Virus record (IMG/VR): IMGVR_UViG_2778261543_000003
Location: 1 to 15,756 of that record
Length of the DNA: 15,756 bases
Strand: one strand, 5' to 3'
Source: a virus
Taxonomy: Duplodnaviria; Heunggongvirae; Uroviricota; Caudoviricetes
Each line of letters opens with the position of its first letter. Position 1 is the stretch's first letter. Both the position numbers and the translations under genes were made by a program. Shown here piece after piece: positions 5,497 through 15,330 of this stretch. The notes below the pieces were generated by a model. It searched no databases, was not told where the DNA came from, and saw nothing but the letters and a program-made list of their open reading frames with translations.

Positions 5497-5660
5497 ATTT
5501 TGTGGTAAATAAGTTATAAGTGATGGATAACAAAGGTATTTTATTTTTGTAAATGTTGCTGATTGATTGGTGTTTGAGGGCTTGCGTGCGGGGTGAAGGT
5601 GTTACCTTTGGCTTGATGCTTGTCTATGATGATGATGGGTGATTGGGTGGTGAACGGCAG

Positions 5661-5695
5661 GAAAAGAAAACCCGGCGCTGAGGCCGGGTGTTTTT
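5661..5695 (-). terminator. Intrinsic terminator ending the cI operon (potentially bidirectional)
   Basis: CCCGGC-gctgag-GCCGGG stem-loop flanked by a T-run on the plus strand and an A-run (U-run on the minus strand); starts right after the stop of the 5694-5990 gene. Confidence 0.7.
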
Positions 5696-5990
5696 AGTCT
5701 TTTCTTTTGCTTAGCATTTCGTCGATTTCTAAGTCAATACGATATTGATCTATTGCTTTTCTCTCGTTTGGGGTTGGTATTTTATATTGTTCAATTAGAT
5801 CTGTTGTGTATTTTATTTCATCTAATGTGATTTTTATATCAGAGAGAATCTCTTTTATATCAATTAGATGCTCTTCTTCTTTTGCGCGATTAGAGCTATG
5901 TTCAATCATTTGAGATAGCTTTTTACTAATGCTTAGCAAAACAAAAAGAATGATGATCAAAACAACAACAAAAACTATCAGAAATTCCAT
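5694..5990 (-). CDS. AT-rich single-pass membrane protein with coiled-coil-like C-terminal region, cotranscribed with cI
   Basis: GGAGGGATA-ATG RBS 40 nt downstream of the cI stop; hydrophobic N-terminus EFLIVFVVVLIIILFVLLSI, then a charged, periodic Ile/Leu segment; followed by a terminator. Confidence 0.7.
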   Translation of the reverse strand: MEFLIVFVVVLIIILFVLLSISKKLSQMIEHSSNRAKEEEHLIDIKEILSDIKITLDEIKYTTDLIEQYKIPTPNERKAIDQYRIDLEIDEMLSKRKD

Positions 5991-6030
5991 TATCCCTCCG
6001 CACTTCCGTAAGTCTTCTTCTGATTATCGG

Positions 6031-6738
6031 TTACCAACTATGAGACGACCAGAATACTCTGCCAATAATCCTTACGGTTTCATGAAATTCATCTCTATCC
6101 ATTACTTCATCCGGGTACTCTTCGCGATTTATTGATCTGATTATCACCGATGTAGGGGTGGCGATTAATGTTTTTACTCGTAACAAATCAGACTGGCAAA
6201 TAGCGTAGGTTTTACCATCTCTGATTGTGGTATCTTGCGTGTTAACACCAACAACATCGCCATCGTGAAGCGTTGGTTCCATGCTTTGCCCTACAACCCT
6301 AACTAGCTTGGCTGATCTTTCAGATACTCCCATCTTTTTCAGATAGTGCTTTCTGAAAACCAAAGAGAACTCCGATGATTCCTCTAGCTCGCAGCTACCG
6401 CTTCCAGCTGAAAGCGAAACGTTAAGAAGAGGCAACGCAACAAACTCGTCATCGTTTCTTTTAATGTCTTCCCATACCACAGCTTTTAAAGATGACTCAC
6501 GGACATTGGATGGTTCTTCATGTGCACCATCCCTCATTTCACCAATACCAGAACTAAGCCATTCAGGGCGCACTTTTAAAGCATTGGCTAATTCAACCAT
6601 CTTGCGAGATCCGTTTGTTTTACCGGACGACATCTTCTGTATGGCTGGCTGAGATATTCCAACCATGTCAGCAAGCTGTGATTGTGATACCCCTGCCGAG
6701 CTCATGGCTGCATTTAGTCTTTCTGCGAATGTTTTCAT
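6031..6738 (-). CDS. cI: cI-type repressor (HTH plus S24 LexA-like peptidase domain)
   Basis: HTH SQSQLADMVGISQPAIQKM; S24 signature GQSMEPTLHDGDVVGV and a downstream Lys (LRVKTL). Start taken at MKTF (6738) because the longer track start at 6768 would overlap an operator. Confidence 0.85.
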   Translation of the reverse strand: MKTFAERLNAAMSSAGVSQSQLADMVGISQPAIQKMSSGKTNGSRKMVELANALKVRPEWLSSGIGEMRDGAHEEPSNVRESSLKAVVWEDIKRNDDEFVALPLLNVSLSAGSGSCELEESSEFSLVFRKHYLKKMGVSERSAKLVRVVGQSMEPTLHDGDVVGVNTQDTTIRDGKTYAICQSDLLRVKTLIATPTSVIIRSINREEYPDEVMDRDEFHETVRIIGRVFWSSHSW

Positions 6739-6750
6739 ACCCACAAATCT

Positions 6751-6816
6751 ATAACTACGGTTATCCAAAGTAAAATAACAAAGGTTATTGCTATTTTTTA
6801 TAACTTGAGTTATCTT
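6751..6816 (+). promoter_or_regulatory. OR operator triplet with pR (and divergent pRM) region
   Basis: ATAACTACGGTTAT (6751-6764), ATAACAAAGGTTAT (6775-6788) and ATAACTTGAGTTAT (6800-6813) at 24-25 bp spacing; candidate pR -35 TTGCTA (6788-6793) and -10 TATCTT (6811-6816). Confidence 0.6.
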
Positions 6817-6849
6817 TGGTTATAAGTAATGACCACAAGAGGTATGCTC

Positions 6850-7074
6850 ATGAATTTAGTAATTCAACGAGCCTTGAAAATTGTCGGTAGCCAAAAGCGC
6901 CTTGCCGACAAGTGTGGTGTAACGCAGCCAGCAGTACACAAATGGCTGAAAGGCGGGTTGGTCTCTCCAGAGAAAGTTACCGCCATCGTTAACGCCACTG
7001 GAGGGCAGATCAAGGCTTACGAAATTCGCCCCGATTTGCCACACCTGTTTCCAAAACCGAATCAGGCAGCATAA
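6850..7074 (+). CDS. cro: Cro-like HTH regulator (YdaS-like)
   Basis: First rightward gene after OR; AAGAGG 7 nt upstream of the ATG at 6850; HTH SQKRLADKCGVTQPAVHKWLK; C-terminal YEIRPDLPHLFP. Confidence 0.65.
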   Translation: MNLVIQRALKIVGSQKRLADKCGVTQPAVHKWLKGGLVSPEKVTAIVNATGGQIKAYEIRPDLPHLFPKPNQAA

Positions 7075-7081
7075 GTAACAC

Positions 7082-7125
7082 CGCTCTTTAACAGTCATGG
7101 TCCTCATTCCCGCCGAAATGCGGGA
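7082..7125 (+). promoter_or_regulatory. nutR (boxA CGCTCTTTA plus boxB hairpin)
   Basis: CGCTCTTTAACA then TTCCCGC-cgaaau-GCGGGAA between cro and cII; inverted counterpart of nutL. Confidence 0.6.
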
Positions 7126-7183
7126 ATGCAACGCGCATAAGTTGATGCGCATAACTTCTTATTAGTTAAGGAAATACTTACAT

Positions 7184-7462
7184 ATGCAACTTACAAGTAC
7201 TCGCAAGAAAGCGAATGCAATTACAAGCAACATCCTGAATCGAATTGCTGTACGTGGTCAGCGAAAGGTTGCCGACGCGTTAGGGATTAATGAATCGCAA
7301 ATTTCGCGATGGAAAGACAGCTTCATCCCAAAAATGGGAATGCTTCTGGCTGTTCTTGAATGGGGTGTTGAAGACGAGGAGTTGGCGGAACTGGCTAAGA
7401 AAGTAGCCAGAATGCTGACAAAAGAAAAAGCCCCGAAGAACGGCGAATTCTTCGAGGCCTGA
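7184..7462 (+). CDS. cII: Transcriptional activator cII
   Basis: Strong resemblance to lambda cII as I recall it (ILNRIA, SQISRWK, IPKMGMLLAVLEWGV). Confidence 0.85.
   Translation: MQLTSTRKKANAITSNILNRIAVRGQRKVADALGINESQISRWKDSFIPKMGMLLAVLEWGVEDEELAELAKKVARMLTKEKAPKNGEFFEA
7418..7454 (-). terminator. Minus-strand intrinsic terminator inside the cII 3' end (candidate OOP-like antisense RNA terminator)
   Basis: 7-bp stem CGAAGAA/TTCTTCG (7434-7440 with 7448-7454) followed on the minus strand by GGGCUUUUUCUUUU. Confidence 0.45.
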
Positions 7463-7496
7463 TGTAGAAAGACTGGATCAATCCACAGGAGTAATT

Positions 7497-7658
7497 ATGA
7501 CAAAACGTCGTAAGAAATACCAGGAAAAAGAAGAGATTCGACACCCTGATTCACCTGAGGGATTAGTGGTAGCCGCAGCAAATAACAGGGCGTTCGCAGA
7601 GCGCCTTGTTGGTGTTTACAGACTAGCCAAAGCAGGAGTGAAACATGGGCGTCGTTAA
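7497..7658 (+). CDS. Small basic hypothetical protein (53 aa, MTKRRKKYQEKEEIRHPDSPEG...)
   Basis: AGGAG 5 nt upstream of ATG; its 3' end overlaps the O start by 14 nt; not in the ORF track. Confidence 0.35.
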   Translation: MTKRRKKYQEKEEIRHPDSPEGLVVAAANNRAFAERLVGVYRLAKAGVKHGRR

Positions 7659-8466
7659 GTTAGCTGATTACAGGCCTCAACTGGAGGTCGTGGAGCATCG
7701 CGTGGCAGATACCGAAGATGGTTTCATGCGCGTTGCTAACGAGATTACCGACAGTCTGCTGATGGCTGATTTAACCGTCCGGCAGTTGAAGGTGATGCTC
7801 GCTATCATGCGCAAGACATACGGATTCAATAAGCCGATGGATCGACTCACAAACACGCAGATAGCAGCCATGACAGGTATTCATCACACTCATGTTTGCG
7901 CTGCCAAGCGCCAGCTTATTGAGCGTAAATTCCTCATTGCTGATGGCGTGAAAATCGGAGTGAACAAGGTGGTTTCTCAGTGGATTAGCCAGGACAGCTT
8001 AACATTAGCTAAAACAGCTAATAAAACATTAGCCAAGTCGGCTAATGGGTATAAGCCAAGTCAGCTAAACACAAAAGACAATATACAAAAGACAATAAAT
8101 ACAAATACCCCCTTACCCCCTAACGGGGGCGGCGATGGGCAGGTTAAACCTGAACGTCGCAAGGCAGAACGAATCGACTACGAATCCTTCCTGAACGCCT
8201 ACAACACCGAAGTCGGTGACAGACTTCCGCATGCTGTTGCGGTCAACGAGAAACGCAAACGCCGCCTGAAGAAAATCATCCCGCAACTGAAAACGCCAAA
8301 CGTGGACGGTTTCAGAGCGTATGTCAGGGCGTTTGTGCATCAGGCCAAGCCGTTTTACTTCGGAGACAACGACACGGGCTGGACGGCCGATTTTGATTAC
8401 CTGCTGAGGGAAGATTCGTTAACGGGAGTACGGGAAGGGAAGTTTGCAGACAGGGGGATTGCATGA
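7645..8466 (+). CDS. O: Replication initiation protein O
   Basis: N-terminal domain resembles lambda O ([28 protein letters not shown]); AGGAG RBS; iteron-like repeats inside the linker; ATGA overlap with the downstream helicase. Confidence 0.8.
7990..8105 (+). repeat. Candidate replication origin: iteron-like repeats plus AT-rich tract inside O
   Basis: AGCCAAGTCGGCTAA (8031-8045) and AGCCAAGTCAGCTAA (8054-8068), further AGCTAA motifs at about 10-bp phasing, then an A-rich tract with ACAAAAGACAATA repeated. Confidence 0.45.
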
Positions 8467-9839
8467 GACAGGATATCGAAGCGAGCGTTATCGGTGGCCT
8501 GCTGATTGGTGGATTAACACCAACCGCCAGCGACGTTCTGGCAACGCTGGAGCCGGAAGCGTTTTCAATTCCGCTCTACCGGAAAGCCTTCGAGGTTATC
8601 CGCAAGCAGGCGAGAAACAGAAACCTAATCGACGCGCTGATGGTTGCAGAGGCGTGCGGAGAGGAGCATTTCACGTCAATCCTGATGACCAGCAAGAACT
8701 GCCCGAGTGCCGCAAACCTGAAGGGATATGCTGGAATGGTCGCGGATAACTATCACCGCCGTCTGGTGCTGGAAATCATGGACGAAATGCGTGAACCAAT
8801 TCAGAGCGGAACCATCGACGCATCGAGTCAGGCGATGGACGAGCTGGTAAAGCGTCTTTCAGCCATCAGAAAGCCACGTGACGAGGTAAAACCTGTACGG
8901 TTAGGGGAAATCATCACCGACTACACTGACACGCTTGACAGGCGTCTGAGGAACGGAGAAGAGTCAGATACCCTGAAGACCGGAATCGAAGAACTTGACG
9001 CTATCACCGGAGGGATGAACGCTGAAGACCTGGTGATTATCGCCGCTCGTCCTGGTATGGGGAAAACCGAACTGGCGCTAAAGATTGCCGAAGGTGTTGC
9101 AAGCCGCGTTATTCCTGGTTCTGACGTCCGGCGCGGAGTATTGATTTTCTCGATGGAAATGAGCGCATTGCAGATTGCAGAGCGAAGCATTGCCAACGCC
9201 GGGAGGATGTCGGTTAGCGTACTGCGAAATCCTGCATCGATGGATGACGAGGGCTGGGCACGTGTTGCTAACGGCATGAGTCAGCTTGCAGATTTGGATG
9301 TATGGGTAGTCGATGCCTCGCGGTTATCGGTCGAAGAAATACGCTCAATCGCAGAACGGCACAAACAGGAAAATCCAAACCTGTCACTCATCATGGCGGA
9401 TTATCTTGGCCTGATTGAGAAGCCGAAAGCAGATCGCAACGACCTTGCAATTGCTCACATCTCCGGAAGCCTGAAGGCGATGGCGAAAGACCTGAAAACG
9501 CCTGTTATCTCCCTGAGTCAGCTTTCGCGCGATGTTGAGAAGCGACCAAACAAACGCCCGACAAACGCAGATTTGCGTGATTCAGGAAGCATTGAGCAGG
9601 ACGCAGACTCAATCATCATGCTCTATCGGGAAGCGGTATATGACGAGAACAGTAGCGCCGCGCCATTTGCTGAAATCATTGTGACAAAAAACCGTTTTGG
9701 CTCACTTGGTACGGTTTACCAGCGGTTCTGCAACGGACACTTTGTTGCATGTGACCAGGATGAAGCCAGACAGATTTGCACAGCATCAAATGCACCTGCT
9801 GCGCGTGGCAGACGATATGCACAAGGGGCTGACGTATGA
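8463..9839 (+). CDS. DnaB-family replicative DNA helicase
   Basis: DnaB-like N-terminal domain followed by a RecA-type ATPase core with Walker [10 protein letters not shown]; sits directly after O. Confidence 0.9.
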
Positions 9840-11352: not shown

Positions 11353-11950
11353 ACCAGCTCGAAGGAAATGCAAAATATGCAAGGAATGGTTTCACCCGGC
11401 ATTCTCAAATCAGTGGTGGTGCTGCCCGGAACACGGAACTCAATTAGCACTCGAACGACGAAGCAAAGAACGCGAAAAAGCGGAAAAAGCAGCAGAGAAG
11501 AAACGACGACGAGAGGAGCAGAAACAGAAAGATAAACTGAAGATTCGAAAACTCGCCTTAAAGCCCCGCAGTTACTGGATTAAACAAGCCCAACAAGCCG
11601 TAAACGCCTTCATCAGAGAAAGAGACCGCGACTTACCATGTATCTCGTGCGGAACGCTCACGTCTGCTCAGTGGGATGCCGGACATTACCGGACAACTGC
11701 TGCGGCACCTCAACTCCGGTTTGATGAGCGCAATATTCACAAGCAATGCGTGGTATGCAACCAGTACAAAAGCGGAAACCTCGTTCCGTATCGTGTCGAA
11801 CTGATTAATCGCATCGGGCAGGAAGCAGTAGAGGAAATCGAATCAAACCATAGCCGCCATCGCTGGACTGTCGAAGAGTGCAAGGCGATCAAGGCAGAGT
11901 ACCAACAGAAACTCAAAGACCTGCGAAACAGCAGAAGTGAGGCCGCATGA
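11345..11950 (+). CDS. ninG: NinG (Rap) recombination protein
   Basis: Near-identity over long stretches to lambda NinG as recalled ([43 protein letters not shown]). Confidence 0.8.
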
Positions 11951-11997
11951 CGTTCTCAGTAAAAACCATTCCAGATCACAAGGGAGAAGCCGCATGA
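11947..11997 (+). pseudogene. ninH: ninH remnant (16 codons, [16 protein letters not shown]) bridging ninG and Q
   Basis: First 10 residues match the lambda NinH start as recalled, then the frame ends after 6 more codons; ATGA overlaps with both ninG and Q. Confidence 0.4.
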
Positions 11998-12512
11998 GCA
12001 TAAGAGAACTAAACCTCACCAAAGAACAGCATGAGTGGCTGAATGGCTGGCTTGAACTGTGGGGCGCATGGGTTTATTCAGGTCGTCTGGAAAAGCGCAT
12101 GAGCAGCGTAATAGCGAAGTTCATGGAGAGCGTAGAGCCGGGAAGAGTTATGACAAGGCCAATGTGCAATGATGATGATGGAATGTTGATTTCTCAGGTC
12201 GTCGATTCCGTCATGTGCATTGACAAGAAAGCCTTTGGCATCCTCCTCAGCTACTACGCTCATGGTTCATCTAAGCGAGCAATTGCATCCTACTATCACG
12301 CGACTGCAAAGCCACGCAAGATGTGTGGACGTGGTGGCGAGGGATGGAGAAAACCTTCACTGGCAACCTGTAGAAACGAAATTGACGACATCCTGAAAGC
12401 GTCGTTATTTGTTTTGTACCAGCCAATGCAAAATGCTTTCAAAATGCGCAAACGTGTTGAGAAAGTTAAGCATGTTGCTGTTAAAAGCCTTGACATGCAA
12501 TTATCCATTTAG
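11994..12512 (+). CDS. Q: Late-gene antiterminator Q-like protein (non-lambda Q type)
   Basis: Occupies the Q position immediately after the nin genes and before the pR'-like promoter, tRNAs and lysis genes; contains Cys/His-rich segments; family assignment from memory only. Confidence 0.6.
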   Translation: MSIRELNLTKEQHEWLNGWLELWGAWVYSGRLEKRMSSVIAKFMESVEPGRVMTRPMCNDDDGMLISQVVDSVMCIDKKAFGILLSYYAHGSSKRAIASYYHATAKPRKMCGRGGEGWRKPSLATCRNEIDDILKASLFVLYQPMQNAFKMRKRVEKVKHVAVKSLDMQLSI

Positions 12513-12575: not shown

Positions 12576-12650
12576 GGGTCAGTCGTATAAAGGTCATTAC
12601 GGAAGGCTGTTAACCTTCTTATCGTGGTTCGAGTCAACGCTGTCCCGCCA
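12576..12650 (+). tRNA. tRNA-Asn-like (anticodon GUU), possibly degenerate
   Basis: Cloverleaf foldable by hand: anticodon arm GAAGG-CTGTTAA-CCTTC, T-loop TTCGAGT, 3' CCA; but one acceptor mismatch, one T-stem mismatch and an odd D-arm. Confidence 0.4.
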
Positions 12651-12655
12651 AATAT

Positions 12656-12731
12656 GCTGGTTTAGCTCCAATGGTAGAGCAGTCGCCTTGTAAGCGAATG
12701 GGTAGCGGTTCAAGTCCGTTAACCAGCACCA
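12656..12731 (+). tRNA. tRNA-Thr (anticodon UGU)
   Basis: 76 nt; perfect 7-bp acceptor stem GCTGGTT/AACCAGC, D-stem GCTC/GAGC with GG in loop, anticodon loop CTTGTAA, T-loop TTCAAGT, 3' ACCA. Confidence 0.75.
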
Positions 12732-12974: not shown

Positions 12975-13298
12975 ATGAAGATGCCAGAAAAACATGACCT
13001 GTTAGCCGCCATTCTCGCGGCAAAGGAACAAGGCATCGGGGCAATCCTTGCGTTTGCAATGGCGTACCTTCGCGGCAGATATAATGGCGGTGCGTTTACA
13101 AAAACAGTAATCGACGCAACGATGTGCGCCATTATCGCCTGGTTCATTCGTGACCTTCTCGACTTCGCCGGACTAAGTAGCAATCTCGCTTATATAACGA
13201 GCGTGTTCATCGGCTACATCGGTACTGACTCGATTGGTTCGCTTATCAAACGCTTCGCTGCTAAAAAAGCCGGAGTAGAAGATGGTGGAAATCAATAA
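12975..13298 (+). CDS. S: Holin (lambda S type, dual-start MKM)
   Basis: Essentially the lambda S sequence as recalled ([39 protein letters not shown]...). Confidence 0.9.
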
Positions 13299-13758
13299 TC
13301 AACGTAAGGCGTTCCTCGATATGCTGGCGTGGTCAGAGGGAACTGATAACGGACGACAGAAAACCAGAAATCATGGTTATGACGTCATTGTTGGCGGAGA
13401 GCTATTCACTGATTACTCCGATCACCCTCGCAAACTTGTCACGCTAAACCCCAAACTCAAATCAACAGCCGCCGGACGTTACCAGCTTCTTTCCCGTTGG
13501 TGGGATGCCTATCGTAAGCAGCTTGGCCTGAAAGATTTCTCTCCGAAAAGCCAGGACGCTGTGGCATTGCAGCAGATTAAAGAGCGTGGTGCTTTACCGA
13601 TGATTGATCGCGGTGATATCCGTCAGGCAATCGACCGCTGCAGCAATATCTGGGCTTCACTGCCGGGTGCTGGTTATGGCCAGTTCGAGCATAAGGCTGA
13701 CAGCCTGATTGCAAAATTCAAAGAGGCTGGCGGAGCGGTCAGAGAGATTGAGGTATGA
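13282..13758 (+). CDS. R: Endolysin (lambda R-type lytic transglycosylase)
   Basis: Matches lambda R as recalled ([39 protein letters not shown]). Confidence 0.9.
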
Positions 13759-14222
13759 GCAGAGTAACCGCGATTATCTCCGCTCTGGTTATCTGCATCA
13801 TCGTCTGTCTGTCATGGGCTGTTAATCATTACCGTGATAACGCCATCGCCTACAAAGAGCAGCGCGATAACAAAGCCAGTGAACTGGAGAAGGCGAACGC
13901 GATCATTACTGACATGCATCAGCGTCAGCGTGATGTTGCTGCGCTCGATGCTAAATACACGAAGGAGTTAGCTGATGCGAAAGCTGAAAATGATGCTCTT
14001 CGGCGCAAGCTTGATAATGGTGGCAGGGTGCTCGTCAAAGGAAAATGCCCTGTGCCATCCTCAGCCGAAGCCTCCAGCGCCTCCGGCATGGGCAATGATG
14101 CCACCGTCGAACTCTCTCCAGTTGCTGGACGAAACGTTCTCGGTATCCGGGGCGGAATTATCCGCGACCAAACAGCACTGAGAACGCTTCAGGGATACAT
14201 AAGGACGCAATGCCTTCGATGA
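13755..14222 (+). CDS. Rz: Rz (inner-membrane spanin)
   Basis: N-terminal half matches lambda Rz as recalled ([31 protein letters not shown]...); C-terminal half diverges. Confidence 0.85.
13975..14181 (+). CDS. Rz1: Rz1 (outer-membrane lipoprotein spanin) embedded in Rz in the +1 frame
   Basis: Signal peptide ending in a lipobox-like VAGCSS followed by a Pro-rich segment ([11 protein letters not shown]), as in lambda Rz1. Confidence 0.7.
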
Positions 14223-15111: not shown

Positions 15112-15330
15112 CGGCAGTACCGCGAAACAACCCAAGCCAGTAAGTGGGGAAATAACACTGGCAGCCACTGAAAGATGAACCTCCAGCCTTATGGCAAAAA
15201 AGATTCTTTGTGGTGGCGGACTGATGGAAAGACATCGGATAGAATAAAACAGTGGCTAGGGTAGCTCCCGAAAAGCGGAATCGTCACCGCCAGCCACTGA
15301 ATCTATGACGAACAACTAGACGAGGTTGAT

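Follow-up and report, generated by a model that had tools for sequence, protein, structure and literature searches.

The window analysed here, that is, the whole stretch of 15,756 nt, contains a LexA-like cI repressor gene on the minus strand (6031-6768), a cro-like gene (6829-7074) and, on the plus strand, a cII gene equivalent to P22 c1 (7184..7462; Pfam Phage_CII PF05269, E = 1.8e-42), the antisense target considered below. The CII protein of the window shares 86% identity with P22 C1 and 53% with lambda CII. Downstream of cII lie a plus-strand ORF of 53 aa of the HK97 gp53 type (7497..7658), an O-like initiator gene (7645-8466; PF04492) and a DnaB-like helicase gene (8463-9839). In Sf6, ES18 and mEpX2 the annotation of the 53-aa ORF is that of an HK97 gp53 homologue, and a Pfam search gave no hit for it. 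A CII-binding repeat TTGC-N6-TTGC (TTGCTTGTAATTGC) is found on the minus strand at 7217-7230, in the 5' part of cII, which is the pRE position in P22, Sf6 and mEpX2; the presence of this pRE-type repeat indicates that the CII circuit on which OOP would act is intact. The closest overall matches of the window are Stx1a phage 10051, HZ41, CUS-3 and HK446 (~97% identity over 40-50% of the window).

Several other features were recorded along the window. A perfect two-way terminator-like hairpin at 5670-5689 (7 bp, 6 G-C, with T runs on both strands) adjoins a 98-aa minus-strand ORF with a hydrophobic N-terminus (5694-5990), located downstream of cI, that may be an accessory (moron-like) gene. Two adjacent tRNA genes, tRNA-Asn(GTT) and tRNA-Thr(TGT), occupy 12576-12731, flanked by an ORF at 11937-12512 upstream and by ORFs at 12975-14222 downstream; by position, the flanking ORFs may be the late activator and lysis genes. 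An int-alpA RNA (Rfam RF02996) was detected at 15249-15311 on the plus strand, with 42.0 bits against a gathering score of 35.8.

On the minus strand between cII and the replication genes, an extended -10 element (TGTCATAAT, 7494..7502) consists of CATAAT at 7499..7494 preceded by TG and is identical to the lambda pO -10 region. It shares bases with the ATG (7497-7499) that starts the next plus-strand ORF, and a -35-like hexamer TGGTAT (7517..7522, minus strand), which matches TTGACA at 2/6 positions, lies 17 bp upstream of it; the start codon and codons 2 and 8-9 of the gp53-type ORF thereby carry the -10, the TG and the -35 of pO. The -10 sits 34 nt upstream of the hairpin described below and 67-79 nt upstream of its U tract. 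A generic sigma-70 scan did not call pO, since just two of the six -35 positions match. The pattern TGNYATAAT occurs once in the window against 1.25 occurrences expected by chance, and the significance of the pO -10 derives from its position and conservation, not from the motif alone. The -35 is TGGTCA in P22 and BTP1 and TTGAGT in lambda, each matching at 4/6 positions, and the window hexamer is the weaker one. With its own TGGTAT hexamer the window pO is presumably active; the P22 and BTP1 transcripts are driven by TGGTCA, so the published detections do not cover the TGGTAT variant.

The promoter was compared across loci after the sequences upstream of the -10 had been grouped into 27 clusters, whose encoded N-termini clearly differ (lambda O type, gp53 type, orf48 type and at least seven others). 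Of the 27 clusters, 26 have T at position 1 of the -35 hexamer, 22 have G at position 3 and about 20 keep the TG of the extended -10; the window TGGTAT fits the family pattern T[TG]G[TA]A[AT]. These conserved bases fall in codon 2 (TG) and codons 8-9 (-35) of unrelated downstream proteins. A constraint at the DNA level is the simplest explanation for bases kept within codons of unrelated proteins, and that constraint would be the promoter. The -35 region is CCTGGTA in several ORF families and there includes a Dcm site (CCWGG).

A LexA-box-like palindrome (CTGGATCAATCCACAG, 7473..7488 on the plus strand; CTGT-N8-CCAG on the minus strand) spans the transcription start, with one mismatch to CTGT-N8-ACAG. 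Five LexA-like near-matches were found in the window, and 4.96 were expected. For lambda, a site within oop-pO at which LexA may bind has been cited (PMC5869508), and it is this homology with lambda from which the palindrome at 7473-7488 takes its standing as a putative LexA box.

The pO -10 and the 5' end of oop are contained in a 33-bp block (ACTGGATCAATCCACAGGAGTAATTATGACAAA, 7472..7504 on the plus strand) that exactly matches the oop consensus of Hayes et al. (2012; PMC3349717), who used a 33-bp consensus to locate the oop loci of lambda, 434, 21, P22, ES18, HK620, Sf6 and HK97. The block marks a mosaic joint where the immunity module meets the replication module. In viral contigs the cII-oop segment adjoins at least three downstream genes (gp53 type, orf48 type and lambda O type), and the overlapping stretch of Sf6 is annotated as "bsq5 boundary sequence". 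Because the block also contains the Shine-Dalgarno sequence (AGGAG) and start codon of the next gene and serves as a recombination boundary, its conservation is due partly to other causes.

Downstream of pO on the minus strand, both a consensus scan and folding identified a terminator hairpin, tO, at 7428..7460, with a 14-bp stem (6 G-C pairs) and a 5-nt loop. Terminator scan and sequence place a U-rich tail (UUUCUUUUGU, 7418..7427) after the stem-closing CUU, with the U tract at 7427..7420; the tail that follows the 7460..7428 hairpin as given by the consensus scan is TTTCTTTTGT. The tO stem is the longest among the 7 terminator-like sites in 5500-9500, where 3.9 are expected by chance. Since the cII stop codon is at 7460-7462, the hairpin begins in the stop codon, and hairpin and U tract together fill the last 43 nt of cII. 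The original prediction had placed a minus-strand terminator with a 7-bp stem inside the last 45 nt of cII. Its location was right and the terminator is real, but the stem has 14 bp, of which the 7 bp are merely the G+C-rich base. The weak CATAAT promoter proposed upstream in that prediction is likewise present as a motif, but it lies outside the 7418-7485 interval assigned to the RNA and, as part of an extended -10 identical to that of lambda pO, it is not a mere look-alike.

The predicted OOP-like RNA (7420..7486, minus strand) is ~63-67 nt long with a two-stem-loop fold, and the covariance model R1 scores 94.6 bits at 7415-7486. Its 5' end at 7486 was set by homology with the lambda +1 G, whereas P22 small-RNA reads correspond to 7483; the predicted 3' end falls within the U tract, at ~7420-7424. 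The 67-nt RNA from 7486 to 7420 folds at -27.2 kcal/mol (z = -4.9 to -5.4; 0/200 shuffles as good), and the plus strand of the same stretch at -17.9 kcal/mol (z = -3.4). The lambda and P22 oop RNAs are predicted to fold likewise into two stem-loops. In the window the 5' stem-loop (GUGGA..GAU...GUC..UCUAC, RNAalifold consensus) occupies the spacer between cII and the next ORF (7464..7486, minus strand); pairing reaches 95% of its cells, and two-sided changes occur at 2 pairs, carried by just ~two haplotypes. The tO hairpin itself folds at -19.5 kcal/mol as minus-strand RNA against -12.6 kcal/mol as plus-strand RNA, and it is followed by a T tract on the minus strand and by none on the plus strand. 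A plus-strand or two-way terminator at this position was rejected because the plus strand lacks a T tract after the hairpin.

The terminator was then compared among related loci. A first search of viral contigs for relatives of cII gave 80 loci at 98-100% identity, which were unfit for covariation, and it was replaced by a DNA-pattern scan anchored at pO (pO -10 plus 5' block). The scan returned 120 loci which, with the earlier loci, made up 86 distinct downstream sequences, the hairpin region itself occurring in 36 distinct forms. A canonical hairpin with T tract was present 55-78 nt from +1 (median 64) in 69/86 distinct sequences, with a median dG of -18.6; among random 95-nt segments of the same loci, 16% passed the terminator test at dG <= -8 and 1.9% at dG <= -15. 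The remaining 17/86 share one common hairpin type, GAAAGCCG...CGGCUUUC, with an interrupted tail: in this group (L090, L103, L119, L131 and 13 other distinct sequences) GCCUUUCUG or GCCUUUUU replaces the clean U tract. Loop-proximal compensatory changes (GUUAGUG/CACUGC vs GUUGGUG/CACCGC) suggest that the GAAAGCCG-type hairpin is a real but atypical terminator. In one record, that of Klebsiella phage RCIP0098 (187-472), cII is annotated as a truncated product of 66 aa and the C-terminal part, including the oop terminator region, is in another frame (299-472), which suggests a frameshift or a sequencing error in the record.

All P22-c1-type variants (21/21) fold into a terminator hairpin, at -14.9 to -23.5 kcal/mol, and in these variants, where the stop-codon anchor fixes the 5' arm by frame, several kinds of Watson-Crick pair occur at 8 or more of the 14 stem positions. 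In a plain MAFFT alignment the inner helix was out of register, with 40% of cells paired, and RNAalifold missed the terminator on it; the register problem was solved by per-sequence folds anchored at the stop codon and by alignment of 36 hits to a covariance model built in this analysis, in which five loop-proximal pairs are still poorly aligned. In the latter alignment 13/14 terminator pairs change on both sides. Over both stem-loops such changes affect 15/22 pairs, compared with 10.7 +/- 1.5 in shuffles that ignore kinship (0/500 reach the observed value); as the alignment is model-fitted and the sequences are related, these covariation figures are supportive and are not probabilities. When the 3' partner was slid by 1-3 columns, pairing fell from 79% to 31-52%. 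Through G-U pairs the hairpin is stabler on the minus strand in 10/15 variants (means -18.1 vs -14.8 kcal/mol). The differences between the window CII and P22 C1 are concentrated in the hairpin (KAPKNGEFFEA vs KPQDCGNSFEA); the peptide changes and the structure stays.

These elements coincide with the known layout of an oop locus. The minus strand across the locus reads 5'-TTTTGTCATAATTACTCCTGTGGATTGATCCAGTCTTTCTACATCAGGCCTCGAAGAATTCGCCGTTCTTCGGGGCTTTTTCTTTTGT, and each sequence-level feature by which an oop locus is recognised is found in it. The element is encoded on the strand that opposes the pR operon, has a CII-family gene on one side and the replication module on the other, and ends (3') within the cII coding region; pO is contained in the conserved 33-bp block ACTGGATCaATCcACAGGAGTaATTATGaCAAA with CATAAT as its -10; a Rho-independent terminator tO follows within the ~55-80 nt past the start that are typical of oop; and the predicted RNA, within the usual ~60-80 nt, has one stem-loop at its 5' end and another that forms the terminator. 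Judged by sequence, the match to lambda and P22 oop is one of homology, beyond resemblance, and the comparison supports the view that the locus is a positional and sequence homologue of lambda oop. We concluded that the locus is very probably a lambdoid oop gene of the P22 form, in a mosaic lambdoid P22-like E. coli phage or prophage. The original prediction that an antisense RNA resembling lambda OOP covers the 3' end of cII is thus borne out by the homology with lambda and P22, by the annotation of P22 and by the transcripts of P22 and BTP1.

The oop element of the window is an already-described element and not a new one. A 161-bp query was matched in 304 phage records, and the central 4 kb of the window in 1339/5426 complete E. 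coli genomes; hundreds of lambdoid and P22-like phages and E. coli prophages carry the element, which most records do not annotate. An Rfam search of the window for OOP, at gathering and at permissive thresholds, gave no relevant hit; ctRNA_p42d and sX13 matched weakly, by their terminator shape, at E = 0.1-0.2. Nor did Rfam give a hit in the oop regions of lambda and P22, so Rfam 15 apparently has no OOP model and the miss in the window is uninformative on membership. The value of the assignment lies in annotation, as oop is common yet rarely annotated and Rfam is without a model, and no new question is opened. Recognising oop does imply that the phage carries the full cII / pRE / OOP lysis-lysogeny circuit.

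In the mechanism that these features suggest, RNA polymerase would start at pO (7502..7494, minus strand), with transcription beginning near 7486, and would run leftward against the pR operon to end at tO. The modelled transcript, ~63-67 nt long, would form two stem-loops. It is complementary to the last 43 nt of cII (7420-7462) and to the 24-nt spacer, a stretch that stops shortly before the AGGAG belonging to the next ORF, and could pair fully with the pR transcript over this stretch; OOP and the mRNA could by construction form a perfect 67-bp duplex. If lambda is a guide, RNase III would cut the duplex, and the cleavage would lower CII synthesis and bias the phage to lytic growth. Convergent transcription from pO may also damp pR read-through into the replication genes. 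In the passages of later papers that cite the original work (Krinke and Wulff, 1987, 1990; cited in PMC5869508, PMC2327240 and PMC12197685), RNase III cleavage of the OOP:cII mRNA duplex, with a lower CII level and a preference for lysis, is established in lambda only. The role of lambda OOP is modest, in that pO and oop mutants failed to restore CII activity after SOS induction (PMC2327240), and lambda pO activity modulates pR read-through and replication (PMC3985674).

The last observation bears on a different weighting of the locus, in which pO matters chiefly as a promoter: convergent transcription would collide with or modulate pR and tune replication initiation, and the RNA would be largely a by-product. 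Such a reading is compatible with the oop identity and differs just on which output matters; we consider it rather unlikely. A lambda pO -10 mutation lowered plasmid copy number and raised pR read-through, and copy number was unchanged when lambda oop RNA was raised via a pcnB mutation (PMC3985674). The window pO is exactly at the immunity/replication junction (gp53-like ORF, O-like gene, helicase), and its -10, TG and -35-like bases are kept across many unrelated replication modules. The compensatory changes in both stem-loops and the minus-strand-specific G-U pairs, however, imply selection on a defined terminated RNA and not on initiation alone, and in lambda the antisense and inhibition phenotypes needed the intact oop sequence, beyond initiation at pO (PMC3349717). 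A P22-type OOP could act beyond cII, either as a module-independent brake on pR entry into the replication module or as a trans regulator via its 5' stem-loop. This extension is suggested by the T[TG]G and TG imposed on the codons of unrelated genes and by the compensatory change in the 5' stem-loop, and we regard it as highly improbable; if true, it would explain the 33-bp block as a preferred immunity/replication recombination joint.

A further explanation dispenses with a functional antisense RNA altogether. The hairpin would be a plus-strand feature, either a stabiliser of the cII mRNA 3' end or a side effect of how the CII tail is encoded, and the CATAAT block would be the ribosome-binding site and start of the next gene together with a recombination linker. 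The block does hold AGGAG and the ATG of the next ORF, Sf6 labels a module boundary there, and the -10 motif by itself is no commoner than chance predicts; a ribosome-binding site or a linker cannot, however, explain the -35-like T[TG]G kept 17 bp upstream in unrelated coding sequences. As for the hairpin, the plus strand also beats its shuffles (-17.9 kcal/mol, z = -3.4) and is at least as stable in 4/15 variants, but the minus strand is the stabler in 10/15, and the T run after the hairpin is on the minus strand only, in 69/86 variants. Minus-strand RNAs with such ends have moreover been sequenced in P22 (PMC13397905) and seen in BTP1 (PMC7067206). We hold the reading without an antisense RNA to be extremely improbable, and retain the identification of the locus as oop of the P22 form.

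Among known systems, lambda OOP (pO-oop-tO, 77 nt) has the same position as the window element, on the minus strand between cII and the replication genes and ending inside the cII 3' end. Its -10 with TG (TTTGTCATAAT) is identical to that of the window, and the first ~20 transcribed bases are nearly the same (TTTGTCATAATtACTCCTGTgGATtGATCCAGT in the window vs TTTGTCATAATgACTCCTGTtGATaGATCCAGT in lambda); the lambda minus-strand sequence that spans pO and the 5' end of OOP is TTTGTCATAATGACTCCTGTTGATAGATCCAGT, from which the window differs at three bases. Both have two predicted stem-loops ending in an intrinsic terminator, the same type of LexA-box-like palindrome across +1, and a CII-family target (53% identical). 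The sequence of the window terminator hairpin, in contrast, is unrelated to that of lambda, a consequence of the different cII allele. In the window 43 nt of the RNA overlap cII, against 55 nt in lambda (PMC3349717), and the window RNA is ~10 nt shorter. The first stem-loop pairs the spacer with cII-coding bases in lambda (AUCCAG/CUGGAU), whereas in the window it is wholly in the spacer, and the -35 is TGGTAT within the gp53-like ORF of the window vs TTGAGT within gene O of lambda. P22 sar and lambda aQ are also short antisense RNAs that tune lysis-lysogeny regulators; they belong to other loci, targets (ant and Q) and sequences, are without homology to the window element and are relevant as a class alone.

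The oop of P22, which is antisense to c1, is closer, with the same architecture and U tail (UUUUCUUUU) as the window and a C1 protein that is 86% identical. The assignment of oop in P22 dates to Backhaus and Petri (1984), and the P22 record NC_002371 annotates a "terminator: oop; similar to phage lambda", corresponding to window 7425-7467, and a "promoter: oop; similar to phage lambda", corresponding to 7494-7522. Small-RNA sequencing of P22-infected Salmonella detected a 63-nt minus-strand "P22C-oop" (GAUUGAUCCAGUCUUUCUACAUCAGGCCUCAAAACUGUUCCCGCAGUCUUGAGGCUUUUCUUU), of which the first 30 nt equal window 7483..7454 and are followed by a different but equivalent hairpin (PMC13397905). The upper terminator stem is GAAGAAU/GUUCUUC in the window vs AAAACUG/CAGUCUU in P22, with the pairing register shifted by one. 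The downstream ORF is of the HK97 gp53 type in the window vs orf48 in P22, hence the different -35. Sf6 and mEpX2 (near-identical stretch) and ES18 (more divergent) have oop unannotated.

For the Salmonella prophage BTP1, RNA-seq led Owen et al. (2020) to annotate OOP(BTP1) at the position of lambda OOP (PMC7067206); OOP coordinates were not found in the supplements of that paper. From +1 through the terminator, BTP1 and the window are one base apart (GUUGAUUG vs GUGGAUUG). BTP1 differs in its P22-type -35 (TGGTCA), in a diverged cII body upstream of the terminator and in its Salmonella host. A terminator sequence unlike that of lambda, a 5' stem-loop in the spacer and a 43-nt overlap with cII are common to the window, P22 and BTP1, whereas the -35 is not. 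The P22 and BTP1 transcripts thus mean that an RNA near-identical to that of the window has already been seen, driven there by TGGTCA.
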